Shown here piece by piece: positions 34,725-58,043 of a DNA stretch of 64,000 bases; the stretch's first letter is position 1, and every line of letters starts with the position of its first letter. Both the position numbers and the translations under genes were made by a program. The notes beneath the pieces are model-generated. The model saw nothing but the letters and a program-made list of their open reading frames with translations. It was not told where the DNA came from and did not search any database. Location: sequence record MK562505; one strand, 5' to 3'. The stretch is from Shigella phage Silverhawkium.

Positions 34725-34800
34725 TGGAGTATCGGAAGGGACTCGAACCCTCATAAACCTGTTTTGCAGACAGGAACATATCCATTTCTGTCACCGATAC
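34725..34800 (-). tRNA. tRNA-Cys (anticodon GCA)
   Basis: Manual fold: 7-bp acceptor GTATCGG/CCGATAC, anticodon loop CTGCAAA, T-loop TTCGAGT, CCA encoded. Confidence 0.65.
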
Positions 34801-34806
34801 ATAATT

Positions 34807-34899
34807 TGGAGGAAGATACCAGACTTGAACTGGTACGCCGATTTCTCGGTTACTGGCAGTTTAGCAAACTGCTCCCTTACCTGTTAGGGTTAATCTTCC
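34807..34899 (-). tRNA. tRNA-Ser (anticodon GCT), long variable arm
   Basis: Acceptor GGAAGAT/ATCTTCC, anticodon loop TTGCTAA, long variable arm, T-loop TTCAAGT. Confidence 0.65.
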
Positions 34900-34901
34900 A
34901 G

Positions 34902-35699
34902 TTATTTGTTAAGTGCATCTTTCATTTCTGGTGTAGAGATAGAGTCAATAACACCAGTCTTACAAGCATCATCAAACCAGTCTGGTAAGACATTTGCAAG
35001 AAAACCGTTAATGTTTGTCTTAAGATACTCAGCCATCAATGCTACTTCATCAGCAATCATCTGTGTGACTTCTGAAGCGTATGCAGTAATCTTTGACATA
35101 CCTTCATTAATCGCTGTAACAGCTTGTGAGGCTAAATCTTCGATTGTATCAAGCCCTTGGTCAATTGCATCTTGTAAGTCGCTTAGAACGCCGTTTACAG
35201 CGTCTATGGAGGTGTTTATAATCTCCATAGCTTTGTTACCATACTCAGTAGCAACTCCCATAATCCCACTGAATGGCGTACAACCAACTTGTTCACCTGC
35301 TGCTCCCATTACATTAGAGTAGCCTTTTGCCACCTGCATTCGTTGAGAGAACTCATCTACAGATTTCTGACCATACTCAGTCAGTGTAGTGGTTGTTGAA
35401 GTTGTACTGCCAAGACTTGTTGTGAAGCTACTTAAGAGTGCTGCTGTTAATCCAGCCGCAATAAGCTTATCTTGCACAGTCGGGTCTGTTACGGAACTAA
35501 TAGAGTTTACTAATGACTGAGAGGCAGCAATTGTACCACCAAGGACTGCTGCACCAGTAATAAGAGGGTTTGAGAAACCATTACCAGTTTTAAGGAGATT
35601 AAAAATCTCTTTACTTTGTTCTGTCATCTCTTTCATTATGCACCTATAAAGTTGGTAGCCCATCGGGATTTGAACCCTGTTCTCATGTTTTTCAGACAA
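34902..35699 (-). CDS. hypothetical Ala/Ser/Thr-rich protein embedded in tRNA island (265 aa)
   Basis: Long ORF between tRNA genes; low-complexity A/S/T-rich N-terminal half. Confidence 0.4.
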   Translation of the reverse strand: MSEKHENRVQIPMGYQLYRCIMKEMTEQSKEIFNLLKTGNGFSNPLITGAAVLGGTIAASQSLVNSISSVTDPTVQDKLIAAGLTAALLSSFTTSLGSTTSTTTTLTEYGQKSVDEFSQRMQVAKGYSNVMGAAGEQVGCTPFSGIMGVATEYGNKAMEIINTSIDAVNGVLSDLQDAIDQGLDTIEDLASQAVTAINEGMSKITAYASEVTQMIADEVALMAEYLKTNINGFLANVLPDWFDDACKTGVIDSISTPEMKDALNK

Positions 35700-35729
35700 G
35701 CGCTTTAACCATATAAGCTAATTGAGCTA
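35655..35729 (-). tRNA. probable tRNA, isotype uncertain (possibly Phe, anticodon GAA)
   Basis: T-loop TTCAAAT with 3-bp GGG/CCC stem, D-loop ATATGGTTA, loop CTGAAAA; acceptor register ambiguous. Confidence 0.35.
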
Positions 35730-35735
35730 TTAAAT

Positions 35736-35812
35736 TGGGGTGACCTACGGGAATCGAACCCGTATAGACCATGTTCACAGCATGGGTCATTATCCATTTA
35801 TGATAAGGCCAC
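35736..35812 (-). tRNA. tRNA-His (anticodon GTG)
   Basis: Acceptor GTGGCCT/AGGTCAC, anticodon loop CTGTGAA, T-arm ACGGG-TTCGATT-CCCGT, CCA encoded. Confidence 0.7.
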
Positions 35813-35843
35813 ATTTAAGGACTCTCGTAAGAACCCTTAGAAG

Positions 35844-35919
35844 TGGCAGCAGTATAAGGATTTGAACCTTAATCTTTCAGCTTCAGAGGCTGGAGCATTG
35901 CCAGTTATGCTATACTGCT
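35844..35919 (-). tRNA. tRNA-Gln (anticodon CTG)
   Basis: Acceptor AGCAGTA/TACTGCT, D-arm GCAT/ATGC, anticodon loop CTCTGAA. Confidence 0.65.
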
Positions 35920-35925
35920 AATATT

Positions 35926-36004
35926 TGGTACTCCATATCGGATTCGAACCGATACATAACACAGATTTTAAATCTGGCCTCTCTGCCAATTGGAGTAATG
36001 GAGC
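35926..36004 (-). tRNA. tRNA with Leu-type anticodon TAA but short variable arm
   Basis: Acceptor pairs, A14/G18G19/A21 D-loop, anticodon stem CAGA/TCTG with loop TTTAAAA, T-arm ATCGG-TTCGAAT-CCGAT, A73. Confidence 0.5.
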
Positions 36005-36006
36005 CT

Positions 36007-36082
36007 TGGCGGGGGATGATGGAATTGAACCATCTTCTTCGATTTCAAAGACCGAGGTTTTAACCTTGTAAACTAATCCCCT
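36007..36082 (-). tRNA. tRNA-Gln (anticodon TTG)
   Basis: D-arm GTTT/AAAC, anticodon loop CTTTGAA, T-arm GATGG-TTCAATT-CCATC; A1-C72 mismatch. Confidence 0.65.
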
Positions 36083-36090
36083 ATTAAATT

Positions 36091-36167
36091 TGGTGCAGAA
36101 TAGAGGATTCGAACCCCTAACAAACAACTTCGTAGATTGCTGTTCTATCCATTTGAACTAATTCTGC
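36091..36167 (-). tRNA. tRNA-Arg (anticodon ACG)
   Basis: Acceptor GCAGAAT/ATTCTGC perfect, D-arm GTTC/GAAC, anticodon loop CTACGAA. Confidence 0.7.
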
Positions 36168-36168
36168 A

Positions 36169-36411
36169 TTATCCGATAAGGACACCATAAAGTTTTAACT
36201 CTTCATTAGTGTCTCTTCTGCTTAAGACTGACTCTCTAAAATCTTTAGCAATATTCTTTCGAGATTCCTGTCTAGCTCTCTTCTTATCTCTTCTGAGAAA
36301 GCGTTTACGATGGTCTGTACGCCATTTGTAATAATCTTCTTCACCATCATGTGCTGCACAGCAGCCACAACTTGCAATTTCAACTTTACCGTGTCTACCA
36401 TAAGGTTTCAT
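36169..36411 (-). CDS. small basic Cys-cluster protein (80 aa) embedded in tRNA island
   Basis: ORF with SCGCCAAHD cysteine cluster and Arg/Lys-rich C-terminus; abuts tRNA-Arg. Confidence 0.35.
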   Translation of the reverse strand: MKPYGRHGKVEIASCGCCAAHDGEEDYYKWRTDHRKRFLRRDKKRARQESRKNIAKDFRESVLSRRDTNEELKLYGVLIG

Positions 36412-36427
36412 AGGAATCTCCTAAAAT

Positions 36428-36505
36428 TGGTACTCCAAGACGGATTCGAACCGTCACTAATACAAGGTTTGAGCTTGCATCCTCTACCAATTGGGATACT
36501 GGAGC
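36428..36505 (-). tRNA. tRNA with Leu-type anticodon CAA but short variable arm
   Basis: Anticodon stem GCAAG/CTTGT with loop CTCAAAC, T-arm GACGG-TTCGAAT-CCGTC, A73, CCA encoded. Confidence 0.5.
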
Positions 36506-36506
36506 A

Positions 36507-36581
36507 TGGTACTCGCTGAAGAACTTGAATCTTCTTCACCAACTTGTAAGGATGGGGTTTTACCGTATAAACTAAGCGAGC
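36507..36581 (-). tRNA. tRNA-Val (anticodon TAC)
   Basis: Acceptor GCTCGCT/AGCGAGT, D-arm GTTT/AAAC, loop CTTACAA, T-arm GAAGA-TTCAAGT-TCTTC. Confidence 0.6.
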
Positions 36582-36676
36582 TTTGAAGAGGTCTGAAGCT
36601 GTGCCGCTAACTCAACTCCGTGGAATTTGTTACGGTCTTCAGTTGACTCAAGCGGTCTTTCACTTGACCTCAAAAT

Positions 36677-36752
36677 TGGTGCTCCCACAAGGATTCGAAC
36701 CCTGATAAGTTGCTTACAAGGCAACCGTAATAGCCAATTATACGATAAGAGC
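36677..36752 (-). tRNA. tRNA-Thr (anticodon TGT)
   Basis: Anticodon arm GTTGC-CTTGTAA-GCAAC perfect; T-loop TTCGAAT. Confidence 0.7.
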
Positions 36753-36758
36753 ATTATT

Positions 36759-36833
36759 TGGAGCATCCAGAGGGAATCGAACCCTCAACCTCAGTTTGGA
36801 AGACTGTAATTTTCCCGTTTAAACTATGGATGC
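36759..36833 (-). tRNA. tRNA-Gly (anticodon TCC)
   Basis: Acceptor GCATCCA/TGGATGC perfect, loop CTTCCAA, T-arm GAGGG-TTCGATT-CCCTC. Confidence 0.7.
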
Positions 36834-36839
36834 ACTAAT

Positions 36840-36914
36840 TGGTGGAGTCACCGAGAATTGAACTCGGTTCCCAAGTTTGCAAAACTCGAATTTTAACCAT
36901 ATAAACTATGACCC
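36840..36914 (-). tRNA. tRNA-Ala (anticodon TGC)
   Basis: G3-U70 wobble pair in acceptor stem (Ala identity element), loop TTTGCAA, T-arm CCGAG-TTCAATT-CTCGG. Confidence 0.7.
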
Positions 36915-36921
36915 CATTGTT

Positions 36922-36997
36922 TGGTACAGGTGGAGGGAATTGAACCCATCGTCTTACTGATTAAGAGTCAGCCGCATAACCATTTTGCTACACCTGC
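36922..36997 (-). tRNA. tRNA-Lys (anticodon CTT)
   Basis: Acceptor GCAGGTG/CACCTGT, loop CTCTTAA; T-stem only 3 GC pairs. Confidence 0.55.
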
Positions 36998-37004
36998 ATT
37001 AATT

Positions 37005-37081
37005 TGGTACACCTAGAGAGATTCGAACTCACACTGAGCAGATTCTAAGTCTGCTGCCTCTTCCAATTGGGCTATAGGTGC
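37005..37081 (-). tRNA. tRNA with Leu-type anticodon TAG but short variable arm
   Basis: Anticodon arm GCAGA-CTTAGAA-TCTGC perfect, 5-nt variable loop, T-loop TTCGAAT, A73. Confidence 0.5.
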
Positions 37082-37331
37082 ATTAAATCTTTGTAGAGAA
37101 CTGCTAAGACGCCAAAGCAACAATGGTATCAAATGCCTTAACAATTCTCTAAAAAGACCTATTGGCCTTTGCATAGTCTTGCTTAATCCGGTGACTAGAA
37201 CCTTTGGAGAGCTTGATACTATCTCTTCTCCGTGACACCTACTAGGTGCTTTCTCAACATCGTGTACGCCAATACACGGAGGGAAACCTAACGCAACATT
37301 CGAACGGAGCGCGGCTTTAAATCTTATTAGG

Positions 37332-37419
37332 CGGTAAGTAAAGGAGTCGAACCCTCACCGTATCTCTACAGTGGCAACTGTTTTCAAGACAGTTTGGCTA
37401 CCATTAGCCGCTACCTACC
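37332..37419 (-). tRNA. tRNA-Ser (anticodon TGA), long variable arm, CCA not encoded
   Basis: Anticodon arm ACTGT-CTTGAAA-ACAGT perfect, about 20-nt variable arm, T-loop TTCGACT. Confidence 0.65.
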
Positions 37420-37432
37420 CCTAATAAGACTT

Positions 37433-37515
37433 TGGCATGGGACGTAGGATTCGAACCCATTTGAAACGGTTTTGGAGGCCGTCGCACATGCCTTAGTGTC
37501 TTAACATCGTCCCAT
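37433..37515 (-). tRNA. probable tRNA-Trp (anticodon CCA) with atypical extra nucleotides 5' of the D-arm
   Basis: Perfect 7-bp acceptor ATGGGAC/GTCCCAT, anticodon loop CTCCAAA, T-loop TTCGAAT; 83 nt. Confidence 0.4.
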
Positions 37516-37680
37516 ACTATATTTCGAAGCTTACCCTGTTATCTCAACACTGTCAAGCTTCTTCTCAGATTATTTACATGTTCTGGAAAACATGAGATAC
37601 AGACCACCTCCTTATGAGATTGACTCTTTCAAGTCAATGCGGAGACCCATAAAGGTCGTCGTAGTAATCTGCTAACTATT

Positions 37681-37756
37681 TGGCACTCCGTATAGGACTC
37701 GAACCTATATATGAACTGTTTAGAAGACAGTTGCCTATCCTTTAGACTAACGGAGC
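37681..37756 (-). tRNA. tRNA-Arg (anticodon TCT)
   Basis: Anticodon arm ACTGT-CTTCTAA-ACAGT perfect; T-arm ATAGG-TTCGAGT-CCTAT perfect. Confidence 0.7.
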
Positions 37757-38003
37757 ATTATCTTTAAAGGCTCTCTTAGAAAACCCTTAAAGATGCCCAC
37801 TTTATTAATCATACCGTGGGCTAGTACGCCAAATTCTTTAACAGGGAGTTGGAATACCCTGCTGGTGTTTAGCCTATTAAGCTACTGCCAGAAAAACATT
37901 ATCGTTTGCATTTATTTTTAAGTTTTTAAAATAGACGCTACGCTAACGAAAACTAAGGTTATCTTAAAGTGGTCACATCTGAATGTCAACAACTTTATGA
38001 AAT

Positions 38004-38078
38004 TGGTTGTAGGTGAGGGTATCGAACCCTCTTCTAACGGTTATCAGCCGTTTGCATTACCATTTATGCTAACCCACA
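38004..38078 (-). tRNA. tRNA-Ile (anticodon GAT)
   Basis: D-arm GCAT/ATGC, anticodon arm AACGG-CTGATAA-CCGTT, T-arm GAGGG-TTCGATA-CCCTC. Confidence 0.7.
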
Positions 38079-38080
38079 AT

Positions 38081-38157
38081 TGGAGGTTCAGGTGGGAATC
38101 GAACCCACATTCATAGGGCTTATGAAACCCTTGCATTACCTTATCTGCGACTGAACC
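38081..38157 (-). tRNA. tRNA-Met (anticodon CAT)
   Basis: Acceptor GGTTCAG/CTGAACC perfect, loop TTCATAA with G-C-rich anticodon stem. Confidence 0.65.
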
Positions 38158-38161
38158 ATAT

Positions 38162-38237
38162 TGGTAGAAGTGGAGGGATTCGAACCCGTCGCCTGTCAGA
38201 TTAAAAGTCTGCCGCATCACCATTCTGCTACACTTCC
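38162..38237 (-). tRNA. tRNA-Lys (anticodon TTT)
   Basis: Loop CTTTTAA, T-loop TTCGAAT with 3-bp GGG/CCC stem as in tRNA-Lys(CTT). Confidence 0.6.
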
Positions 38238-38424
38238 ATTAAATCATCTTTGCAGTAACCTACGCAAACCTTGCTAAAGGGTTTGTAGAGTCATCTCTTA
38301 GTAAGCTAATCTAGAATCATGCTCAAGAGACTCTTCGGCACTCATGGGACGACTGGTTAGCTCCATAAGTCACTGCAAAGGTGATTACCAGACCGTTGTT
38401 ATCTTAAGTGCTTCCATTACACCA

Positions 38425-38525
38425 ACACGCCGTAACGTGTGAAGGAATCGAACCTTCGCCTTTTCTTTACCAGAGAAATAGATTGTTTAACTTGCTGTAA
38501 ACGGTCTTCTGTAAATTGTTGGAAC
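38425..38525 (-). ncRNA. orphan tRNA-like element (T-arm only) of unknown function
   Basis: Perfect T-arm GAAGG-TTCGATT-CCTTC at 38441-38457 but no matching acceptor, D or anticodon arms; overlaps repeated 24-nt motif. Confidence 0.3.
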
Positions 38526-38659
38526 CAGACCAAGTTTTAAATTTTTCAAAATTAAATTGGCTTGAAATTTTAAGTGACTTGCTGTATTTGGTCTTCTGCT
38601 CCTTTAAAGAATACTCGCAAGAACTCTTTAAGGGAGGGGCTAAATAGCCCTCTCAAAAT

Positions 38660-38736
38660 TGGCGGCTACGATGAGACTTGAACTCACATCATCTCCCGTG
38701 ACAGGGGAGTATTTTCTCCAGTTAAACTACATAGCC
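38660..38736 (-). tRNA. tRNA-Asp (anticodon GTC)
   Basis: Anticodon arm CTCCC-CTGTCAC-GGGAG perfect; T-loop TTCAAGT. Confidence 0.7.
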
Positions 38737-38741
38737 TTTAT

Positions 38742-38829
38742 TGGTGTGCCGTGTAGGAGTCGAACCTACCGAGTCTCAATGACAAGGGATTTACAGTCCC
38801 CACCGCTACCATCTACGGGATAACGACAC
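38742..38829 (-). tRNA. tRNA-Tyr (anticodon GTA), long variable arm
   Basis: 3-bp D-stem, loop CTGTAAA, long variable arm, T-arm GTAGG-TTCGACT-CCTAC. Confidence 0.65.
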
Positions 38830-38838
38830 ATTTAAATT

Positions 38839-38915
38839 TGGCGGTTAGTCAGGGATTCGAACCCTGTACCATTCGGTTAACAGCCGACCGCACATGCCTT
38901 ATGTGCTTCCTAACC
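38839..38915 (-). tRNA. tRNA-Asn (anticodon GTT)
   Basis: D-arm GCAC-ATAAGGCAT-GTGC, loop CTGTTAA, T-arm CAGGG-TTCGAAT-CCCTG. Confidence 0.65.
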
Positions 38916-38998
38916 ATGTTAGTATTACCAGACCGTATCTTTTCATTTTTTCCGATAAAAAATTTTAAGTGTTTGCTGTAAACGGCCTTCTGTAAATT

Positions 38999-39074
38999 TG
39001 GAGGCGGGTGTAGGAGTCGAACCTACCGATACCATGCTAATGAGACATGTGAGACGCCCTTTCTCTATACCCGC
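38999..39074 (-). tRNA. tRNA-Met or Ile2 (anticodon CAT), second copy, with 1:72 mismatch
   Basis: Anticodon arm CATGT-CTCATTA-GCATG; T1-C72 mismatch reminiscent of initiator-type acceptor end. Confidence 0.5.
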
Positions 39075-39162
39075 AATTCTTAATGACCAGACCAAATCTT
39101 TTTTGGATTTCTATGCGCGAAATTGAAAAGTTTGTTTGCTGTAATTGGTCTTCTGTCAAAAC

Positions 39163-39240
39163 TGGCATTCCCGAAGGGACTTGAACCCTCAAACCACACC
39201 TTGAAAGGGTGTTGACTTTACCTAATTTGTCTACGGGAAT
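39163..39240 (-). tRNA. tRNA-Glu (anticodon TTC)
   Basis: Acceptor ATTCCCG/CGGGAAT perfect, anticodon arm ACACC-CTTTCAA-GGTGT perfect. Confidence 0.7.
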
Positions 39241-39246
39241 ATAATT

Positions 39247-39326
39247 TGGTCTCCGTTGAAGGATTTGAACCTTCGACCCCTTGCTCCCAAAGCAAGTGCT
39301 GCTAAACCAAACTGAGCTAAACGGAG
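39247..39326 (-). tRNA. tRNA-Pro (anticodon TGG)
   Basis: Acceptor CTCCGTT/AACGGAG perfect, anticodon arm CTTGC-TTTGGGA-GCAAG, T-arm GAAGG-TTCAAAT-CCTTC. Confidence 0.7.
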
Positions 39327-48695: not shown

Positions 48696-49146
48696 AGAGA
48701 CTGTTCGCAAAGCTATGCTGAACAACGGGACTAAGAATGAAATGTATGAAGAGATTGTTGCAGAGCTTGGTTGCTCAAGACATGCTGCAAAGGTTCTTCT
48801 TCATTGCTTTATCTGGGAGTGTTCAGAAGCTTACATGGCTCATGCAGCTTTTTCAGAGTCCCACTTACAAGCTGATAGAGACTTACTGAAACCATTTGAC
48901 TTACGTGTACCTGAAGAAGAAGAAGATTGTAAACTGAACCGTGTGTACATCATCAAACATGCACCAACAGGTGAAACAGTTGGCTCTATTAAGCTGGTCA
49001 GAGAGATTGATGATTTAGGCTATGAAGGTGATATTATGAGTGCTGATAGCAACTCTATTTTTAACACATATGGAAGATGGATGGTAGGTTATGATGGGTT
49101 CATTACAGCAAACTATAGCCGTTCAGACTACAAAGTTGACTTGTGA
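48682..49146 (+). CDS. hypothetical protein (about 154 aa)
   Basis: Internal Met (MKNIKETV) with GAGGA RBS; ORF 48631..49146. Confidence 0.4.
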   Translation: MKNIKETVRKAMLNNGTKNEMYEEIVAELGCSRHAAKVLLHCFIWECSEAYMAHAAFSESHLQADRDLLKPFDLRVPEEEEDCKLNRVYIIKHAPTGETVGSIKLVREIDDLGYEGDIMSADSNSIFNTYGRWMVGYDGFITANYSRSDYKVDL

Positions 49147-49814
49147 TTATGGTAGCCCGTCTGAAGAAGAGTCTGAAGTTCTTGAGAGATATGGTTCTCC
49201 CTCAGAAGAAGAACTCAGAAGAATGGAAGAAGGTTACTGAAAAAGTTTTTAAGGATTTGATAGAGATGAATATTAAAGAGTTTAACTTAGAGAGAAAGTA
49301 CTTGGTACTTAGCTTGGAAGATATTAACCAGTATCTTAATGAGGATGACAGAAGCACTTTACAGCAGATTGTTTTCACACTAAGGCATCACAGAGAGCAT
49401 GTAGAGGGTCGTGAACCACTCGAAGGTATCTTTGTGAAGAACTCTTATCCGTTCTATGAAGACACTTTCAAGAAACTTGAGATGTATGTTAGGCAGAAGA
49501 ATCGTAAAGAGTTCTCTATGGTTTCTCTTGGTGGTCAACAGATGCTAGTCTTGGAAGACATTAATCCAAAGAGAGTTAACAAGGGTGTCTGTATTAAGGT
49601 CACAGGTAAAGAAGAGTTTATTGATGCACATCTACTAGAACACATTGTAGAAGGTGGAAGTGCTGTATTGAACCTAAATGAGTATCACATAAGCTCACAC
49701 CCAATTAAGGGTGACCAGATAATGATTCAGGTAAGAGAACGACATAATGGATTCACACACTTCTTCCAGACGAATAAAACCTCATTGAAGGTAATGTTCA
49801 AAGAAGTGATGTAA
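49143..49814 (+). CDS. hypothetical protein (223 aa)
   Basis: Last ORF of plus-strand series, followed by terminator. Confidence 0.5.
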   Translation: MIMVARLKKSLKFLRDMVLPQKKNSEEWKKVTEKVFKDLIEMNIKEFNLERKYLVLSLEDINQYLNEDDRSTLQQIVFTLRHHREHVEGREPLEGIFVKNSYPFYEDTFKKLEMYVRQKNRKEFSMVSLGGQQMLVLEDINPKRVNKGVCIKVTGKEEFIDAHLLEHIVEGGSAVLNLNEYHISSHPIKGDQIMIQVRERHNGFTHFFQTNKTSLKVMFKEVM

Positions 49815-49820
49815 CTACAT

Positions 49821-49845
49821 AGCCCCTTAATTGGGGCTTTTTATT
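49821..49845 (+). terminator. rho-independent terminator
   Basis: Hairpin AGCCCC-ttaatt-GGGGCT followed by TTTTTATT. Confidence 0.7.
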
Positions 49846-51560
49846 GAGTAAAATTTACGAAATTTATATTTCTTATAAAATTTGGATTCACTCCGTTCAT
49901 CTTGGGTCACCATGATATGTGATAAAATATCTACCCCTTCTTAACAACCTATCTAAGCATACTCTCTATATAGTATTATATAGTATCTATATATCCTCTT
50001 AGTCCCTTTCTAGTGATTTGATATAGCTATCTCATAGTGAACTGTATAGCCCCTTCTAAATAGCCTCTTAACAAGCCCTCTAACAAGCCTTTCTTAACCA
50101 CCTATACAATCACCTTCCTAGCCTCTTAATAACCCCTTAGAAGCCCCTATACCCATCTTAATCTCTATGTTACCTGTGTTACCCTCTATAGATGGTTCAC
50201 TAGGGTCAACTAAGCCTCTATATAGACTGTTATATAGAACTAAACAGGTATTCCCTTCTAGTTGATTCGGTTGTTCTTAAGAATCAACCTCTTAGGCTTA
50301 CCCTACAAGGTCTAACACGGTATTAACAAGGTATCTTATAAGCCTGTTTTTACCTGTATTATATTAGATAGTGTATAGATAGTTATTCAGTTCTATAAAA
50401 TTTTTATAAAATAGACTGTCAAGTGTTTATTTAGGGGTCTTGAGAGAATCTGAAAAATATCTGTCTAGGATGTATATCTGCTTGGTAGCCCTTAACAGCC
50501 CTGTAACATCCCCTTTGCAAAATCTTAAAATATCATTAACAATTTCTTAACAACTCTAACAAGCTCCTAACAAGTCTCCAGAGTTCTTAACAGACCCTTA
50601 ACAGTTCTAACAAGGGCTTAACAAGTTCTTAACAGTTGTTGCATAGTCTTTACAGATGCTTAACAGATGACTAACAAGAGCTAACAGGGATTGGTAACAA
50701 TACCAATTAGTTAATTTTAAAGAGTTATTTTGTTAGGGATTGGTAACAATACCAATTAGATTATTAACAAGTTCCTAACAAGTGTTTAACCTTTTTAACA
50801 GTCTCTTAACATGGTCACTATCTCTTGGTTTATAGTTCCCTATCGTTCTTAGTGATTCTTTAAATAGCCCTCTTAAAAGCCCTGTATAGCTCTGTATAGC
50901 CTCTTCTTAGTCTCTCCTTAGTATCTATAGCCCAACTACCTGTATAGCTCTTTATAGCCCTTTCTAGGGGCTTTTATAGAGACTTCAAAGTGTCTTACAA
51001 GGTTGTAACATAGTCTTAACAAGGATTTAACAAGGGGCTAACAAGCATAACTATGTAGTAATTGTTAAAAATTTGTTAAGAAAATGTTAAGGGGGCTAGC
51101 TTTTACGATACTATTACGTAACTTTGAAGTGACTTTTAAGCTACTTTATAGCCCCTATAACATACTTTTTAGTAACTAACAAGCCCTTTTTAGTAGTTCA
51201 CTAGGGATTGGTAACAATACCAATAAGATACTAGCCAGCATATAAGCTTATACCCTTATAAGATTCTTTTAAGGCTCTAGGAAGCTCTATAAAGGGCTTT
51301 AAAGAGTGGGTTAATTGATTGGTTAAGTTGAGATGATAAGCCGTTATAGAGCGTTATAGAGCGTTTAAGGGATTGCCCTTCCCTTTCGGGTTATGGGCTT
51401 ATATTTATAGTTGATTTGATAAGAGAATATAGAGTAAACTATAGAGTTATTGTTCTAAATGTCTGGAAAGGGATTGTATAAGGATTCGATAGAGTCCTGT
51501 CTCATAGACGTTAAAAAGCCCCATTTAAGGGGCTGTTAAGGTATCTGGGGCTATTTGCCC
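49846..51560. repeat. 1.7 kb ORF-free region densely packed with short direct repeats (iteron-like)
   Basis: More than 25 copies of YTAACA(A)G at about 11-12 bp phasing, (C)TRTATAGC repeats, and three copies of GGGATTGGTAACAATACCAAT. Confidence 0.75.
50691..50706. promoter_or_regulatory. palindromic site TTGGTA-acaa-TACCAA (copy 1 of 3)
   Basis: Perfect 6-bp inverted repeat with 4-bp spacer inside conserved 24-mer; other copies at 50740-50755 and 51208-51223. Confidence 0.5.
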
Positions 51561-51575
51561 CGATGCGGCGTCTTA

Positions 51576-51827
51576 TTAGTCATTGAAGCCGTTTTTGTTG
51601 TAGTAAAGAGTGATAATAGAATCACCCCAATAGTAAGTTGTAACGCCGTCTTTTAAGACTTCCTGTTTTGTTTCTTTCCAGAAATTTTCTGACGGTTGAT
51701 AGTCCTGAATAGTTGCTTTCAGACACATTTCAATCATTCCGAAAGCATCACCAGTGCCTACCATGTCAAATTTAACATCTAAAACGTGAAAACCAAAGTT
51801 GTTAACAGTTGCGCGGATAGTTGCCAT
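51576..51827 (-). CDS. hypothetical small protein (83 aa)
   Basis: ORF preceded by conserved cassette CCTAAACTGGAGATTCTAAAATG. Confidence 0.45.
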   Translation of the reverse strand: MATIRATVNNFGFHVLDVKFDMVGTGDAFGMIEMCLKATIQDYQPSENFWKETKQEVLKDGVTTYYWGDSIITLYYNKNGFND

Positions 51828-52141
51828 TTTTAGAATCTCCAGTTTAGGATTGTTTAGGTTCTAAATAGTAGGGGCTTTTACACCCCTTGTCAACACTTAT
51901 TAGATAACTTTCTTATAAGAGTTACCAGATAAGATATAGTTAGTAACTGAGTGATTTAGTAAGTCTACACCAGTGATAACTACCGTTTCTTCATTTTTTC
52001 TTTCTTCGTGCTCTTTTTTCATCTCTTCCCAACGTTTAGCACCAAATTTACTAATCATACGCTGTTCAAAATTCATCTTTCTAGTCTCCAGTTTAGGATT
52101 TTTGTTTAGTGGGGAAGTTTCCCTCCCCGTTGAAAGTAATA

Positions 52142-52405
52142 TTAATTCATTGCCGCGTAGGTTGCAAGTCTTTTTTCGTTATATTTTGAAAGAATCTCAC
52201 AAGATAAAACATCATACTTAACAATTGCTTCAGATTTTGTCAAGTCAAAGTGTCCAAATGTTTCCCCATCTTTAAACCCTACCACTTCGTAAGATTCTTT
52301 GATTTGTTCACCTGTAAACATGTCGGATTCGACACGGTGAAACAATGAAACATCTTCTGTTACAGTGCCAATTTTTAACAGTTCGATAAGTTCTACATGT
52401 TCCAT
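52142..52405 (-). CDS. hypothetical small protein (87 aa)
   Basis: ORF preceded by conserved promoter/hairpin/RBS cassette. Confidence 0.45.
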   Translation of the reverse strand: MEHVELIELLKIGTVTEDVSLFHRVESDMFTGEQIKESYEVVGFKDGETFGHFDLTKSEAIVKYDVLSCEILSKYNEKRLATYAAMN

Positions 52406-52465
52406 TTTGAATCTCCAGTTTAGGATTTAGTGTGGAAGGTCATTCCCTCCCCGTTGATAAGTACT

Positions 52466-52993
52466 TTACAGACTTTCGATTAACTGGTCAAGCCCTTTTT
52501 GCATATCTTTTAAGGATTTTTCATGTAATTTTATCATGTCGTTGATTGCTTGCCCTAACTGAAGAGAGTAATCACCGTCTTTTGTTTCACTTGTATAGAT
52601 GTTCTCTACATCATACAGATTAAAAGGATTGCACCCTGTACCCATTGCCTGAGTCCCAAAAGCCAACGGCATGATATACAAATTAAGAGACTTTATAGAG
52701 CGCTCATAAGCCATTTTATAGCGGTTAATCTCTTCTTTTGATGACTTGATGCAATGCTCGTAGAGTTCTGCAACTATAGCCATAAAATCCGGTAAAATCA
52801 TTGCAACTGCTTTCATAAAATTGTTTGCTGTTACAAGTTTTACATTTGGGCGATGAATGTAATATTTTTTATCACTTCCCTTTGTGATGACTGCAAAGAG
52901 TTTAGCATTACAACGGAATTCGAAAGTGTCTTTTACTGGTTTGGTCATTACGTCTTTTGAGCGGATAGTGTTAATTGCAGTGAACTTATTCAT
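52466..52993 (-). CDS. hypothetical protein (175 aa)
   Basis: ORF preceded by conserved cassette with hairpin GGGGAGGGAAACTTCCCC. Confidence 0.5.
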   Translation of the reverse strand: MNKFTAINTIRSKDVMTKPVKDTFEFRCNAKLFAVITKGSDKKYYIHRPNVKLVTANNFMKAVAMILPDFMAIVAELYEHCIKSSKEEINRYKMAYERSIKSLNLYIMPLAFGTQAMGTGCNPFNLYDVENIYTSETKDGDYSLQLGQAINDMIKLHEKSLKDMQKGLDQLIESL

Positions 52994-53053
52994 CTTGATT
53001 CTCCAGTTTAGGATTTTTGTTTAATGGGGAAGTTTCCCTCCCCGTTGATAAGT

Positions 53054-53082
53054 ACTTTACTTGTTTTGATTTGCCTTTGCAA
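53054..53082 (-). promoter_or_regulatory. sigma70-like promoter (TTGCAA-17-TAAAGT), type-A cassette
   Basis: Hexamers followed by ACTTATCAACGGGGAGGGAAACTTCCCC hairpin and CCTAAACTGGAG RBS block; same cassette near 52080 and 55860. Confidence 0.45.
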
Positions 53083-53392
53083 GCTTTTTATTGAAAAAAT
53101 AATCTTGAATCTCACTTGCTATCAGCAGACCAAAAGGAATAACCACTGATACAATCATGCCACACAGAATAGGGTTTTTAATTACTTCCATCATTTTAGA
53201 ATCTCCAGTTTAGGAAAGCGTTATTGCTTGAGATAAACTATATAGACTTTGATGAGTCATTGCAAGTAATTTTTAAGCTTATCTATAAAGAATCTTTTAA
53301 GTGATTCCTTTTAGATAAACCCCCTCGAACAAAGTTACCAATGTCAAGGGGTATTGTCAAGATAATTTTTAATGTTTTTTGTAAGTCATTGA

Positions 53393-53734
53393 TTAGCTTA
53401 TAAAGATTTTTTCAGGCTTGACATAGGTTAATCTCTGTGATTTTAGTAAGTCACTCCAGATTAATCCCGCTATGTGACTATAACCCTTTTCACGTAGTTG
53501 TTTCATTGTCTCCGCTCTAGTTTCAAAGCGGCTTGCGTAGTATTCAGTGTTAAGGGTTGTTTTGTTTCCTTCGTTATCTGTATGCACAATTTGCATCACT
53601 TGAAAGGGGCTTACATCTTCCCCCCTATTCCATTGCTCAAAGTACTTCAGGCACTGCATAGGAGTCATTTTATCATTCACCTGAGTAGACCATGATGAAT
53701 TTTCTTTGTCAGTGATAACTGTTACGTAAGCCAT
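53393..53734 (-). CDS. hypothetical protein (113 aa)
   Basis: ORF preceded by conserved cassette. Confidence 0.45.
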   Translation of the reverse strand: MAYVTVITDKENSSWSTQVNDKMTPMQCLKYFEQWNRGEDVSPFQVMQIVHTDNEGNKTTLNTEYYASRFETRAETMKQLREKGYSHIAGLIWSDLLKSQRLTYVKPEKIFIS

Positions 53735-53786
53735 TTTAGAATCTCCAGTTTAGGATTGTTGGGGCTTGCTTGCCCCGTTGATGAGT

Positions 53787-53815
53787 ACTTTACTTGTTTT
53801 GTTTTCTAGTGTCAA
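53787..53815 (-). promoter_or_regulatory. sigma70-like promoter (TTGACA-17-TAAAGT), type-C cassette
   Basis: Hexamers followed by hairpin GGGGCAAGCAAGCCCC and CCTAAACTGGAG RBS block. Confidence 0.45.
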
Positions 53816-54045
53816 TCTTTTTCTATGATTATTTCATATTCTTTATCGACACTATCAAAATAGATTCCGTATTCGTCCTCAGTCTTGTAATAACATTGTA
53901 TATCATCGCTTTTTGGATAGTCAAGCCTTGCGATTTGGCATACAGCAATTGCATTTTCTTCTGTACCTGTGAACTCTTCAAGCCCTTTAAAGTCACATTG
54001 CGACCCGTTACAGATTGATAGTATTAGATAGATTGTTGTAAGCAT
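53812..54045 (-). CDS. hypothetical small protein with hydrophobic N-terminus (77 aa)
   Basis: ORF; possible signal peptide MLTTIYLILSICNG. Confidence 0.4.
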   Translation of the reverse strand: MLTTIYLILSICNGSQCDFKGLEEFTGTEENAIAVCQIARLDYPKSDDIQCYYKTEDEYGIYFDSVDKEYEIIIEKD

Positions 54046-54108
54046 GTTTTAAGCCTCTTATAAGCCCCTACACGGGGCTTTTATGGTTAACTGATACGTT
54101 TGCTTATC

Positions 54109-54666
54109 TTAAGCGGTAAAGCTCTCTAAATCGCTTTCTGTGATGTTAGATTGCATATTTTCGAAGATATCACAATAAACGTTACTCATTTCATCGTTAC
54201 GCTGTACCATTGCGGCAATATTGCGTAATTCATCCGGCAGATAACCCAAATTACGATTTTGCAAGCTGGGAACAAAGAAAGGTGCATACATTGTATTAAA
54301 ATCTGTTACGTAAACCTTTTTAATCCATTCCTTATCAAAGTATTCTGTAAAACTTGCAACGTCGCTCATATTTTCACAACTCCAATCGTCTTGCAACTCT
54401 TCGTCTGGTATGTCAAGCTCTAAAATAACTATTTTTTGCGACTTCATTTGATAAGCTGCTGTGATACTTGCACTATCAAGAGCATTTTTAATACCCTCAT
54501 CCGTGATTTGTTCGTTGTCCATTTCTTCAACGTCATAGAACTTGCTTACAGGGTAGACATAAAAACATCCATCCATATCTGAGCAATTCCAAGCGCCTGA
54601 TGGCTTATCGCCACCATTTAACAGGTTTACAAAGTTTTCTTGAGTAGTACCGTGAAAGCATTTCAT
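54109..54666 (-). CDS. hypothetical acidic protein (185 aa)
   Basis: ORF preceded by conserved cassette. Confidence 0.45.
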   Translation of the reverse strand: MKCFHGTTQENFVNLLNGGDKPSGAWNCSDMDGCFYVYPVSKFYDVEEMDNEQITDEGIKNALDSASITAAYQMKSQKIVILELDIPDEELQDDWSCENMSDVASFTEYFDKEWIKKVYVTDFNTMYAPFFVPSLQNRNLGYLPDELRNIAAMVQRNDEMSNVYCDIFENMQSNITESDLESFTA

Positions 54667-54750
54667 TTTAGATTCTCCAGTTTAGGATTGTTGGTAAAAT
54701 TCTTTATCTGGGGCTTATCTTATCGAACTATAAACCCCATGTAAAGCATT

Positions 54751-54999
54751 TTATTTAGTTTTCTTTGTAAAGATTAGTTTAACTGCAACAGTGGGCAACT
54801 CTTCAATACTTGTGAACAAAGTCACCTTTTGAGTCTTGACATTATAGCCATTTTTTGCAGCGTATGCCGTAAACCGATTCACAATATAGCTGTAAGTTTT
54901 TGCCGTATTATCTGGCATATGGTATAAATAGGGCTTGCCTAAATTTTGCGGTTGTGTTAATAGTCGGCAAGTGTCTGGAACGTTTAAGTAATTCAGCAT
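54751..54999 (-). CDS. hypothetical small protein (82 aa)
   Basis: ORF preceded by conserved cassette. Confidence 0.45.
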   Translation of the reverse strand: MLNYLNVPDTCRLLTQPQNLGKPYLYHMPDNTAKTYSYIVNRFTAYAAKNGYNVKTQKVTLFTSIEELPTVAVKLIFTKKTK

Positions 55000-55087
55000 T
55001 TTAGAATCTCCAGTTTAGGATTTTTGGGGCTTGCTTGCCCCGTTGATGAGTACTTTAATCTATCTAAAAATCAGTGTCAAACTATTT

Positions 55088-55489
55088 TTAAAGTTCTGCG
55101 TAAATTACATCGCAGATATCTTGAAAATCTTGCTTTGTCAAGTTGCGCTGTAACCAAGTTGCGAAAAAATCAGCAATTGCAAAATTTGCATCGAACTCGA
55201 TAGATAGCCACACTTTAACAGCAAATCGAAACATTTTCAAGTCTAGTTCTTTATTCATAACTTTTGATTTGGCTAACATGTCAGCCATTTCATATTGTGC
55301 GCCATCAAGTGTACTACCATTTGCAACGTTTGCAAGTGAATTTTTAATGTTTTCTACATCTAAAATCACTCCCTGAATTTTACCGATAATGTTATGCAAT
55401 GTTTCATCAGGTGCGGTTGATGTAATGGCATTGATGCGGTTTACAGTCAAACGTGCTTTCAGGATTGCAACTTCTTTATTGTTAGCCAT
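55088..55489 (-). CDS. hypothetical protein (133 aa)
   Basis: ORF preceded by type-B cassette (hairpin GGGGTTATCAGGCTGATAAGATAGCCCC). Confidence 0.45.
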   Translation of the reverse strand: MANNKEVAILKARLTVNRINAITSTAPDETLHNIIGKIQGVILDVENIKNSLANVANGSTLDGAQYEMADMLAKSKVMNKELDLKMFRFAVKVWLSIEFDANFAIADFFATWLQRNLTKQDFQDICDVIYAEL

Positions 55490-55579
55490 TTTTAATACTC
55501 CAGTTTAGGTTGGTTGTTTGGTAAATCTCTTTATCTGGGGCTATCTTATCAGCCTGATAACCCCATGTAAAGCAATTTA

Positions 55580-55852
55580 TTAAACTAAGTGTAATTTTTT
55601 ACCGTTAACAATGATGTAACTTACGCCGCTATTACTATAAACATCTTGATAAATTCTGCGTAACTTGCCCAAATAACGTACTTTCCAAGACGTTGGAATC
55701 TTTTTTCCATAGCCCGTAGCAGTTTTTTGAAGCCCTGCCAGTTGCCAATCTAAGATATGTTGTTCTGCTTGCAACTCTTCAAAGTTTAAAACCCCGTCAA
55801 TGTAAACTTTTAAGGTAACGTTTAAGGTACGGCCATTGTTAGTTGTATACAT
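55580..55852 (-). CDS. hypothetical small protein (90 aa)
   Basis: ORF preceded by conserved cassette. Confidence 0.45.
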   Translation of the reverse strand: MYTTNNGRTLNVTLKVYIDGVLNFEELQAEQHILDWQLAGLQKTATGYGKKIPTSWKVRYLGKLRRIYQDVYSNSGVSYIIVNGKKLHLV

Positions 55853-55951
55853 GTTTTGATTCTCCAGTTTAGGATTTTTGTTTAGTGGGGAAGTTTCCCT
55901 CCCCGTTGATAAGTACTTTACTTGTTTTGATTTGCCTTTGCAAGCTTATTT

Positions 55952-56281
55952 TTAAGAATTTTTTCTTTTGTTTATTTCTTGTGCAACAACTGGATAATAG
56001 TCTGTTAAATCAGCCACTTGCAAGGACTCTAACAGTACATTATAATCATTGATTAGTTCAAAATCACCAGATAAAACATCATTGATTTGGTATGTTTTAG
56101 CCTTAAATCTGAAGCTCATCTCTAAACGTTGCAATTGTGTACCATCTAAACGCTCTAAAAAGCCCCTGACAAGGTTTATTTTAACTTCCTTAGTGGTTAT
56201 CTCATTTACTTTGTTTAGCGCCTTATAAGCCTTGTAAAGCGCTACAATTGAGACCAGCAAAGCAACACCAGAGATTAACAT
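55952..56281 (-). CDS. membrane-anchored small protein (109 aa)
   Basis: N-terminal hydrophobic helix MLISGVALLVSIVALY. Confidence 0.45.
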   Translation of the reverse strand: MLISGVALLVSIVALYKAYKALNKVNEITTKEVKINLVRGFLERLDGTQLQRLEMSFRFKAKTYQINDVLSGDFELINDYNVLLESLQVADLTDYYPVVAQEINKRKNS

Positions 56282-56571
56282 TATGATTTCCCCTTGTGAA
56301 ATAATTTACCAGTATGACTAATTTCAAAAGAGTCTATCATGTCTTTTGTAGACTTAACAGAACTTTTATTAGTGTTATCATAAATATCAACCTGAAGCAA
56401 AGGTTTTTTGTATTCTTTACAAAAGTTCCATACACAAATAACAACTTCTTTACCATTGATTTTTCCATGATACCATTCCGTAATATCATGAGTTCGGCGC
56501 ATAGATTCTATGAAGTTGATATCTTGTAATAGTTTGCTGAGTTTAGAGCGTACATGAGCGGCAATAAACAT
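56281..56571 (-). CDS. hypothetical small protein (96 aa)
   Basis: ORF preceded by conserved cassette. Confidence 0.45.
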   Translation of the reverse strand: MFIAAHVRSKLSKLLQDINFIESMRRTHDITEWYHGKINGKEVVICVWNFCKEYKKPLLQVDIYDNTNKSSVKSTKDMIDSFEISHTGKLFHKGKS

Positions 56572-56662
56572 TTTAGATTCTCCAGTTTAGGATTGTTAGT
56601 TGTAAATCTCTTTATCTGGGGCTATCTTATCAGCCTGATAACCCCATGTAAAGCAATTTATT

Positions 56663-57175
56663 TTAAATATTGAAGATATTCATCACGGAATCTTTTAAAG
56701 CTTCCAAGCGCTCTAAAACTTCCCCTTCAGCACCTGAATTACTCACTTCCTCTTTTAATCTTTCCTCTAAATCTTCCCCGTCAAGATAGCACCAATCAAA
56801 GGAATAAGCAAGTGAAAAACTGTTTAGGACTGTATTTCCGTTGTTATCAACCACTGAAGCAAACAAGATATAGTTTGATGCTTCCAAATCACGCTGTAAT
56901 TCGTCCTGTAAGCTCTTATAAGCTTCCTGTGATGGGTTAACCCTTCCTTGTTTTGAATAGTCGCTCATAAGCTGTGATAATTCGTAATGCTGAGGAATAG
57001 CATATTTATAATCGCTACGTCCTGCATTTTTAACTTTTATTGTAACCCCGCCTTTGTGCTCATCTGTAAATTGCCAGTTTTCCACACAGTGGGAAGATTC
57101 ATAAAAGTTTACAGCTTCATAAACGATGGAATAGTTTTCTTTCTGTACTTCAAAGGTTGCGTCAACAGTTTTCAT
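56663..57175 (-). CDS. hypothetical acidic protein (170 aa)
   Basis: ORF preceded by conserved cassette. Confidence 0.45.
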   Translation of the reverse strand: MKTVDATFEVQKENYSIVYEAVNFYESSHCVENWQFTDEHKGGVTIKVKNAGRSDYKYAIPQHYELSQLMSDYSKQGRVNPSQEAYKSLQDELQRDLEASNYILFASVVDNNGNTVLNSFSLAYSFDWCYLDGEDLEERLKEEVSNSGAEGEVLERLEALKDSVMNIFNI

Positions 57176-57262
57176 TTTAGATTCTCCAGTTTAGGATTGT
57201 TGGTAAAATTCTTTATCTGGGGCTTATACTAGCAACTTATAAACCCCATGTAAAGCACTTTA

Positions 57263-57520
57263 TTAGATTAAATTGCTAGTTAATGCTAAGTGCATTTTAT
57301 AACCTTGTTTAGTGAATACATTCACTTTACCGATGGTTTTTACACCTTTAAAAAGGTTGTGTGAACTATGTTTCAGGGTTAATTCTTTATCAGTCTTTAC
57401 TCCCCATCTTACATCAGAATTTTTTCCGTTGTCAACAACTTTTCCATTTAATTTTTTAGCAGTTGCGCGAGCGTCATCACGAGATTTTGCAGAAATTACG
57501 ATGTTTTTGATAGTAGCCAT
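57263..57520 (-). CDS. hypothetical small basic protein (85 aa)
   Basis: ORF preceded by conserved cassette. Confidence 0.45.
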   Translation of the reverse strand: MATIKNIVISAKSRDDARATAKKLNGKVVDNGKNSDVRWGVKTDKELTLKHSSHNLFKGVKTIGKVNVFTKQGYKMHLALTSNLI

Positions 57521-57610
57521 TTTTAATACTCCAGTTTAGGTTGGTTGTTTGGTAAATCTCTTTATCTGGGGCTATCTTATCAGCCTAATAACCCCATGTA
57601 AAGCAATTTA

Positions 57611-57994
57611 TTAGTTAATTTCAAAGATTGTTACATATCCATCACTACCAACAACCTGAGATACTCCAGCTTTTACCACGTTATAACCCATGTTGTCAAG
57701 ATGATAAACTGCATCTTCATAGCCATATTTGCAACCTTGATAACGGCGCTTGTCGCAACGAATTATGGTCTTCCCACGTCCTGCCAGTGCATGGATAATA
57801 GCTTTTTCTCCTGAGAGTGTACCATCTAACATTGTAGCGGTATAGTGATTTATTTTGTTGCCATTCACATCATACTTAAAATTGTATGCGTGGACAACAA
57901 TTATTTTGCCTTTTAAGTTTTCACTCATAGATTTTTCTAGTGCATCACGAAAGTTTTCTTTGTTGATGAATTTAGGCATATAATATTTTTTCAT
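57611..57994 (-). CDS. hypothetical protein (127 aa)
   Basis: ORF preceded by conserved cassette and promoter. Confidence 0.45.
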   Translation of the reverse strand: MKKYYMPKFINKENFRDALEKSMSENLKGKIIVVHAYNFKYDVNGNKINHYTATMLDGTLSGEKAIIHALAGRGKTIIRCDKRRYQGCKYGYEDAVYHLDNMGYNVVKAGVSQVVGSDGYVTIFEIN

Positions 57995-58043
57995 TTTAGA
58001 TTCTCCAGTTTAGGATAGTTGGGAGTTGTTCCCGTTGATGCAA

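Follow-up and report, generated by a model that had tools for sequence, protein, structure and literature searches.

The chromosome ends of Felix O1-like phages (Ounavirinae) have been described for several members of the group. A direct terminal repeat (DTR) of 608 bp was mapped in UAB_Phi87 by Bal31 digestion and run-off sequencing, and the clade was linked to ends of the DTR type (PMC4837284). DTRs of 613 bp and 581 bp were predicted with PhageTerm for Ro111lw (PMC6454146) and Pr103Blw (PMC8303462), respectively, and repeats are also annotated in GenBank records. Here, we analyzed positions 49846-51560 of a 64,000-nucleotide stretch of Shigella phage Silverhawkium (record MK562505; the whole stretch is called the window below), a zone of 1.7 kb that lacks long open reading frames (ORFs) and is rich in short repeats. 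An earlier note on this DNA had drawn attention to the zone and had been unable to assign its motif to a known system. That part of the note did not hold, because the zone almost certainly corresponds, as judged by homology, to the DTR or concatemer-junction region of a Felix O1-like phage, which has already been mapped or annotated in this group. The DTR identity as such is therefore already known; the anatomy of the arrays inside the DTR appears to be undescribed. The literature searched, which was limited in range, deals with the length of the repeat only, and we found in it no description of phased arrays, of mirror-image termini or of constraint on the flanks.

At megablast sensitivity, the zone matched 255 phage records, the best matches being Shigella, Escherichia and Citrobacter phages of the Mooglevirus/Suspvirus/Felixounavirus group (up to 85% identity). 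When a 613-bp stretch in the middle of the zone was used as query, 260 phage records were matched, and in 246 of these the match covered 80% or more of the query. SeKF_63, Ro111lw, D4, I14.1, E9 and HP1 hold two copies, and the match begins at position 1 of the record; the matches at the start of these two-copy records extend over positions 1-613, 1-581, 1-580 or 1-570. Likewise, NBSal004 (1-694) and NBEco004 (1-628) hold two copies, one of them from record position 1. Exact repeats are present at both record ends of Ro111lw (613 bp), SeKF_63 (613 bp) and D4 (581 bp), and they map to 50484-51096 of the window. The HP1 record has a 570-bp repeat_region annotated at its start and a second match elsewhere, and the UAB_69 record labels the homologous 618 bp as "DTR", with limits that differ by 2 nt per side.

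By homology to these relatives, the left cut would lie between 50483 and 50484, at ATATCTGCTT/GGTAGCCC (the slash marks the cut), and the right cut at GTTAAGGGGGC/TAGC. These boundaries are identical in the window, Ro111lw, SeKF_63, D4 and HP1 (ATATCTGCTT/GGTAGCCCTTAACA and AATGTTAAGGGGGC/TAGC), with the HP1 boundary read at the record-start end only. Compared with the DTRs of UAB_Phi87, Ro111lw, Pr103Blw, UAB_69 and HP1 (570-618 bp), the repeat of the window is found at the same place in the genome, flanked by the homologues of AYO145A genes 028 and 029, is 72-81% identical over its whole length, has identical boundaries and goes with the same large terminase. Nothing essential differs, apart from three palindromic insertions here versus none or one in the relatives. 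The large terminase TerL (32680-34296, minus strand) matches phrog_979 with an E value of 2e-232 and is 95-99% identical to the TerL proteins of Felix O1-like phages, including that of NBSal004, which has the repeat at both record ends. Because relatives have the homologous DNA as an exact repeat, with the same boundaries, at the start and the end of their records, the zone is best understood as a collapsed concatemer junction. Each mature chromosome would then carry the repeat at both ends, and each end of the virion chromosome would be gene-free over about 1.1-1.25 kb, with the flanking genes being transcribed outward to the ends.

Some record ends in this group were set aside. The "DTR" of Citrobacter phage KMM2 (OP902295.1) is a 64-bp overlap of the record ends and was not used as evidence; since this overlap lies inside the homologue of the true 570-613-bp repeat (window 50496-50557), it looks like an assembly artefact rather than physical ends. 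The record of Wc4 is circular and is merely split inside the zone, and so it tells nothing about the ends of Pectobacterium phages. Breaks within or beside the zone are found in several further database records as well. A T5-type injection-stop region was an early guess that was dropped once the matches showed a Felix O1-like genome.

Judged by homology, the zone is laid out as two unique non-coding flanks with the DTR between them, and it contains the following features:

49846-50483: left unique non-coding flank, 638 bp, which in virion DNA would lie internal to the right-hand terminal repeat
50484-51096: predicted DTR, 613 bp, with 24 TAACA cores on the plus strand and 4 on the minus strand
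50484-50508, plus strand: left terminus module, 5'-GGTAGCCCTTAACAGCCCTGTAACA, with two TAACA cores 11 bp apart
50537-50811, plus strand: main phased array of 18 TAACA(A/G) cores, mostly spaced by 11 bp, with the consensus unit yTTAACAAGnny
50815-50985, plus strand: central part of the DTR, with a (C)TRTATAGC/TATAGCC cluster and CTTAG units 10-11 bp apart
51006-51045, plus strand: four TAACA(A)G cores exactly 11 bp apart
51063-51096, minus strand: right terminus module of three inverted cores (TGTTA on the plus strand) 11 bp apart, ending AAGGGGGC/TAGC
51097-51560: right unique non-coding flank, 464 bp, which in virion DNA would lie internal to the left-hand terminal repeat
51375-51398, plus strand: conserved hairpin GCCCTTCCC-TTTC-GGGTTATGGGC, followed by TTATATTTAT

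Motifs were counted over 49846-51560 and compared with 1000 dinucleotide-preserving shuffles of this region. The TAACA core occurs 32 times on the plus strand and 8 times on the minus strand (shuffles 2.4 +/- 1.5, maximum 9; z about 20), and the longer TAACAAG occurs 14 times on the plus strand and not at all on the minus strand (shuffles 0.19 +/- 0.43; z about 32). The shuffled controls, which the earlier note had proposed as a check, thus place the motif far above expectation. The same note had counted more than 25 copies of YTAACA(A)G; this is correct for the YTAACA core (26 on the plus strand, 5 on the minus strand) and too high for the strict longer form, with 21 copies on the plus strand. 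TRTATAGC is present in 4 copies in the zone and GTTATAGAGC in 2 tandem copies (51343-51362).

The cores are also spaced by about one helical turn, as had been proposed. Thirteen of the 31 distances between adjacent TAACA cores are exactly 11 bp, longer pair distances group at 20-22, 31-33, 42, 51-53 and 62-64 bp, and the best period is 10.25-10.5 bp. A Fourier analysis across the whole 1.7 kb gave a peak at 10.5 bp with a power of 8.2, compared with 2.0 +/- 0.9 (maximum 5.2) for 80 segments elsewhere in the window. The densest 300 bp of the zone holds 19 cores, against 5 or fewer in any other 300 bp of the 64-kb window, and 24 of the 32 plus-strand cores fall within the 613-bp repeat.

The terminal modules at the two cuts mirror each other. 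The right-end array (51063-51096) is the sole run of inverted cores, and on the minus strand this terminus reads 5'-GCCCCCTTAACATTTTCTTAACAAATTTTTAACA. Consequently both 5' ends share GCCC(CC)-TTAACA-N6-TAACA in mirror orientation, the phased motif starting 6-8 nt inside each cut; the TAACA cores themselves start 9 and 20 nt inside the left cut and, on the opposite strand, 7, 18 and 29 nt inside the right cut. A packaging site was one of the three possibilities raised earlier for the phased repeats, along with a replication origin and a partition site, and it is the one that gains from the placement of the chromosome ends and the DTR in the middle of the zone, with the motif at this short distance from each cut. 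The flanks carry repeats as well. Degenerate 10-12-bp units (TAnnnnGCCyCT, CTATATAG) are found in the left flank, which has 5 TAACA cores on the plus strand and 3 on the minus strand, and 11-bp units of the TTTTACGTAAC type are found in the right flank beside the boundary.

Conservation was assessed in nine relatives, all of which keep the main phased array. Their zones contain 22-31 TAACA cores on the plus strand versus 5-7 on the minus strand, and 9-14 versus 0-1 copies of TAACAAG. Differences in array length between relatives amount to whole 11-bp units: at window position 51043, the relatives carry 0, 1 or 2 extra AAGTnnCTAAC units of 11 bp, and just outside the right boundary of the repeat (window 51097-51125), ESh20 has about five tandem 11-bp TTTTACGTTAC units versus one to three elsewhere. 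The terminal blocks are among the best-conserved parts of the zone, with a column identity over ten genomes of 0.93 on the left, where the zone is most conserved, and 0.89-0.93 on the right, and the right flank contains two more highly conserved blocks, 51255-51294 and 51375-51454.

Aligned to AYO145A and Mordin, the three non-coding parts of the zone show identities of 0.84-0.89. For the six flanking genes, identity at third codon positions is 0.53-0.59 versus AYO145A and 0.53-0.81 versus the closer Mordin, and at first plus second codon positions it is 0.68-0.98. Since the identity of the non-coding parts exceeds that of third positions in the flanking genes, the entire 1.7 kb, flanks included, is by this comparison under stronger purifying selection than the neighbouring genes. 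A more distant comparison is provided by Pectobacterium phage Arno18, where the alignable DNA shrinks to 54 nt from the left end of the repeat. In this phage, the ORF-poor zone at the syntenic position (1.46 kb) contains 22 TTAACA/TGTTAA sites versus 16 in the surrounding 4.6 kb, and runs of these sites spaced by 11 bp face inward from both sides. This enrichment, despite so little alignable DNA, argues that the motif is conserved beyond mere sequence similarity, so that a comparison suggested earlier, of motif rather than sequence in related phages, came out positive in the nine relatives and in Arno18.

Taken together, the explanation that we favour, with a probability of about 0.6, is that the zone is a DTR junction in which the phased cores form a platform for recognition of the termini, cutting and packaging. 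For the arrays considered separately, a role in terminus recognition and packaging has a little less than an even chance. More doubtful is a specific version, in which the arrays would be the recognition platform of a putative terminase-specificity protein, with short-DTR packaging, recognition elements inside the repeat and wrapping of about 600 bp. Several observations argue for a packaging role: the motif lies 6-8 nt inside each cut and is inverted between the boundaries; its count is about 20 standard deviations above the shuffles, in the only such cluster of the 64 kb, with a coherent 10.5-bp peak; and the indels of 11-bp units, the cores kept in nine relatives, the enrichment in Arno18 and the non-coding identity of 0.84-0.89 point the same way.

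Under this packaging reading, the phased cores are predicted binding sites for an oligomeric, sequence-specific protein, which may be a small terminase or specificity factor of the phage group or a host architectural protein. Once bound, the protein would wrap or bend the junction and so set the nuclease of the large terminase at the two boundaries. Nicks on opposite strands at the boundaries, followed by strand-displacement synthesis, would then duplicate the repeat during packaging, by analogy with T7-type short-DTR phages, for which a mechanism of nicking and strand displacement has been proposed.

Some points weigh against the packaging reading. The repeat is present once in the window, and for this phage itself the ends are placed by homology; strand-specific nicking and duplication of the repeat are likewise assumed, from the analogy. 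Moreover, the packaging signals of T7 are described as flanking the repeat and not as filling it, which means that an array within the repeat may have another function, one required at either end of the chromosome. Felix O1-like phages have been described as lacking a recognised small terminase (PMC3185647). We also found no binding protein among the 11 flanking proteins, in the ORF upstream of TerL or through an array scan of IMG/VR: the 11 flanking proteins gave no Pfam match above threshold and no PHROG of known function, and no TerS family was found among them or for the ORF directly upstream of TerL (34303-34569, minus strand). This ORF, which probably starts at M22 and then encodes 67 aa, is identical (100%) to gp83 of Shigella phage Silverhawkium and is found only in this phage group; its product is acidic, matches phrog_4397 (function not assigned) and has no Pfam match. 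The name "tail fiber assembly protein", which some sources give to the homologues, seems to have been carried over from other annotation.

IHF was also considered as a binder. The zone has 16 IHF-like sites with one mismatch to TAACAAnnnnTTA versus about 4 expected, and in these the critical T of ATCAA is replaced; the sites are the repeat unit in another register and were not counted as evidence for IHF.

The IMG/VR scan used the pattern TAACAAG-N4-TAACAAG-N4-TAACA in search of a co-occurring protein, and it returned Felix O1-like genomes plus two unrelated kinds of array. The first is found in high-GC phage contigs of about 33-36 kb (L044, L086, L063 and similar) with GTAACAAG repeats. In L044, the contig of this group that was read in detail, four direct GTAACAAG repeats spaced by 11 bp lie about 1.2 kb from the contig end, with several inverted copies about 250 bp away; they are directly upstream of an HNH endonuclease gene, a 511-aa ORF without a Pfam match, which by its position is likely the large terminase, and a portal gene. 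The second kind is found in an 81-kb contig, 3300042863_002604 (L090-L093), with at least four intergenic tandem arrays that contain up to 13 copies of TTAACAAGTTC, an 11-mer also found as one unit of the window array. The proteins of this contig carry long acidic, proline-rich and PVVPTE repeats, and it possibly derives from a eukaryotic virus. Neither this contig nor any other tested locus of the TTAACAAGTTC type (16 in all; the 35-kb group was not part of this comparison) shares a protein with the window, and the TAACAAG core and TTAACAAGTTC match in unrelated contigs is therefore probably coincidental.

The junction can be compared with well-studied packaging sites. Like that of T7, it would give a short, exact, non-permuted DTR arising from a single concatemer copy, and it is non-coding with short repeats; the T7 repeat is reportedly flanked by short-repeat arrays, SRL and SRR, which are said to have been described by Dunn and Studier in 1983. 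Unlike the 160-bp repeat of T7, the repeat here is four times longer, the junction extends over 1.7 kb without genes or strong promoters, and the helically phased motif fills the repeat itself. Nor is a pause mechanism of a phage RNA polymerase expected here, and the terminase is of an unrelated sequence class, with no small subunit known. According to a paper citing Chung and Hinkle 1990, both the pac site and the terminal repeat of T7 are needed for packaging (PMC13236587).

A second likeness concerns sites with short motif copies about one helical turn apart beside a cleavage site. At the pac hexamers of P1, the pacL and pacR boxes of SPP1 and the R sites of lambda cosB (with IHF), a small-terminase oligomer reads the repeats, often bending the DNA. 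Those phages, however, use headful or cos packaging and have 3-7 repeats for which binding has been demonstrated; here, there are more than 20 cores and two predicted cleavage sites 613 bp apart, and binding is a prediction from the motif pattern.

A replication origin of the iteron type is the first alternative, and one that we consider unlikely. The phased repeats would bind a phage initiator that melts a nearby A+T-rich stretch, and a copy would be present at each chromosome end. Many direct, helically phased repeats in the same orientation are indeed present in a strongly conserved zone, and stretches of 82-87.5% A+T lie next to or inside the arrays (50374-50413 in the left flank, with 87.5%; 49849-49888; and 50696-50735), although such stretches are not specific to origins. 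T7 phagemids require an origin besides the pac site and the terminal repeat, according to the same paper (PMC13236587, citing Chung and Hinkle 1990). On the other hand, no DnaA box (TTATCCACA) with 0-1 mismatch was found in the zone, a relaxed consensus does not exceed the density of the window, and no initiator, helicase loader or primase is recognisable among the 11 flanking proteins, whose only matches are to PHROGs without an assigned function, although an initiator of an unrecognised type may be present. The earlier suggestion of an origin thus keeps its phased direct repeats and A+T-rich stretches and lacks DnaA boxes and a recognisable initiator. GC skew, which had been proposed as a further check, changes sign wherever the genes switch orientation, which happens in this zone and also at about 11 kb and 41 kb; as it merely tracks the genes, it does not point to an origin on its own. 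Nor would an origin explain why the motif is mirrored right at the two cuts. Compared with known iteron origins (lambda ori, P1 oriR, pSC101), direct phased repeats and nearby A+T-rich DNA are shared. In those origins, however, iterons are usually 17-22 bp long, are present in 3-8 copies next to or inside the initiator gene and are often accompanied by DnaA boxes, whereas the zone has an 11-bp unit with a 5-7-bp core in more than 20 copies, no DnaA boxes and no recognisable initiator adjacent to it.

Alternatively, the arrays might manage the chromosome ends, with an array-bound protein pairing the repeats ("handcuffing") or coating them, thereby protecting the ends from exonucleases and aiding recombination into circles or concatemers after injection. 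The arrays lie mostly within the repeat and would be present on every mature end, and so a role in pairing or protection deserves to be weighed. In addition, the same sequence module is found on both 5' ends, and phasing on one helical face suits cooperative binding. This role is nevertheless quite improbable: no candidate protein was found among those scanned, and the unique flanks are as conserved as the repeat, which end management does not explain.

It is very unlikely that the zone is a passive spacer, i.e. an 11-bp satellite made by slippage, decaying since and free of any sequence-specific function, which is tolerated because terminal repeats need only length and homology. The copy number of the 11-bp unit does vary among relatives, and 11-bp tandem arrays with a TAACAAG core also occur in unrelated viral contigs. 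However, the identity to relatives is 0.84-0.89, a higher value than first and second codon positions reach in most flanking genes and far above the value for third positions, and the cores, their orientation and the boundaries are kept across genera.

Nor does the zone seem to encode small proteins or a structured non-coding RNA, for which the chances are similarly slight. The ORF-free zone is bordered on the left by a rightward operon, whose last gene is at 49143-49814, and on the right by a leftward array, which ends with the gene at 51576-51827 (minus strand). As stated earlier, no long ORF is present: the longest ORFs between 49814 and 51576 are 32, 36 and 31 aa, and the 3-nt coding periodicity is lost, its power being 0.2-1.4 versus 2-3.8 in the flanking genes. 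Although some annotation pipelines place short coding sequences (CDSs) here, none of the three ORFs is intact in the nine relatives, in which they contain stops and frameshifts, and two of the three would cross the physical genome ends. No Rfam match was obtained at E values up to 1 for either strand of 49000-52500, and promoter-like sites are not enriched (10 in the zone versus 7.3 +/- 2.6 in shuffles). Small expressed proteins or a known non-coding RNA, either of which would have spoken against the earlier note, were accordingly not detected by these searches. In favour of an RNA, the hairpin at 51375-51398 is conserved and shows one compensatory change, in Ro111lw (GCCA...TGGC). Following it is a conserved promoter-like sequence, TTGATA-N18-TATAGA, directed at the terminator of the leftward genes. 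Hairpin and promoter-like stretch together could represent a short transcript or a DNA structural element.

The zone is also sealed from both transcription units. That a plus-strand and a minus-strand unit converge on it was confirmed, and each ends in a terminator hairpin that faces inward:

49821-49842, plus strand: Rho-independent terminator hairpin at the end of the rightward operon, AGCCCC-TTAATT-GGGGCT plus T run
51513-51533, minus strand: terminator hairpin at the end of the leftward gene array, GCCCCTTAAATGGGGC plus T run on the minus strand
51547-51561: second hairpin beside the leftward-array terminator

The records of AYO145A and Mordin annotate terminators at both homologous places. 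The position of the zone between converging arrays is also syntenic in AYO145A (genes 028/029), Mordin (107/108), UAB_69, finno, ESh20 and KMM2.

A partition (centromere-like) site for a ParB-type protein, the remaining option raised earlier, can practically be dismissed in spite of the resemblance of clustered phased repeats to plasmid centromeres, because the 11 flanking proteins include no recognisable family of the ParA/ParB type, the chromosome ends fall at this very site, and the relatives are described as lytic, temperate marker genes not having been found in them (PMC11737134).

The three palindromic insertions mentioned above are copies of one 22-23-bp unit, GGGATTGGTAACAATACCAAT(T):

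50687-50708: first copy, a 22-bp insertion, GGGATTGGTAACAATACCAATT, with the palindrome ATTGGTA-ACAA-TACCAAT; the site is filled only in the window, UAB_69 and SeKF_63
50736-50757: second copy, a 22-bp palindromic insertion; the site is filled only in the window and Ro111lw
51202-51224: third copy, the palindromic insertion TAGGGATTGGTAACAATACCAAT; the site is empty in all nine relatives compared

The unit shows clean presence or absence at these three sites among close relatives, with exactly 3 copies in the window and none or one in the relatives. An exact-match scan of IMG/VR returned only seven contigs, with 1-2 copies each and with lengths of about 88-94 kb, similar to Felix O1-like genomes. 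The unit could represent a miniature element, mobile or gene-converted, that is peculiar to the ends of phage chromosomes.

Typing and biocontrol of Salmonella, E. coli and Shigella make wide use of Felix O1-like phages. In database records, the ends of these genomes are routinely mis-set: many records are opened at rIIA or at the terminase gene, and annotation pipelines put spurious small CDSs into the zone; with the exact boundaries given above (ATATCTGCTT/GGTAGCCC and GTTAAGGGGGC/TAGC), such genomes can be oriented without read data. The conserved phased arrays may serve as DNA bait for the missing packaging-specificity protein of the group, and they help to delimit a minimal junction for packaging engineered DNA. 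Beyond these uses, the zone is an ordinary feature of a linear phage chromosome and not a new kind of system.

Some other features of the window were observed. Restriction and Dam sites are strongly avoided: GATC is absent from the 64 kb versus about 218 sites expected (maximal-order Markov estimate), CTGCAG (20 expected), CAGCTG, GGTACC and GTGCAC are absent as well, and GAATTC and ATGCAT occur once each. A 27-nt cassette is present in fourteen copies at 51828-58020 (minus strand), directly ahead of small leftward genes. Its coding-strand sequence, AACAATCCTAAACTGGAGATTCTAAAA(TG), comprises a conserved leader, a Shine-Dalgarno sequence (GGAG) and the start codon, and in many cases a GGGGC...GCCCC hairpin and a promoter-like TTGCAA-N17-TAAAGT precede it. 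The 14-bp core of the cassette is annotated as repeat_region in Mordin, and the arrangement is reminiscent of early promoter/leader modules that are repeated in other large lytic phages. Finally, 26 tRNA genes are clustered at 34725-39326 (minus strand), between the terminase region and the next coding block, which explains the second stretch of the window without long ORFs.

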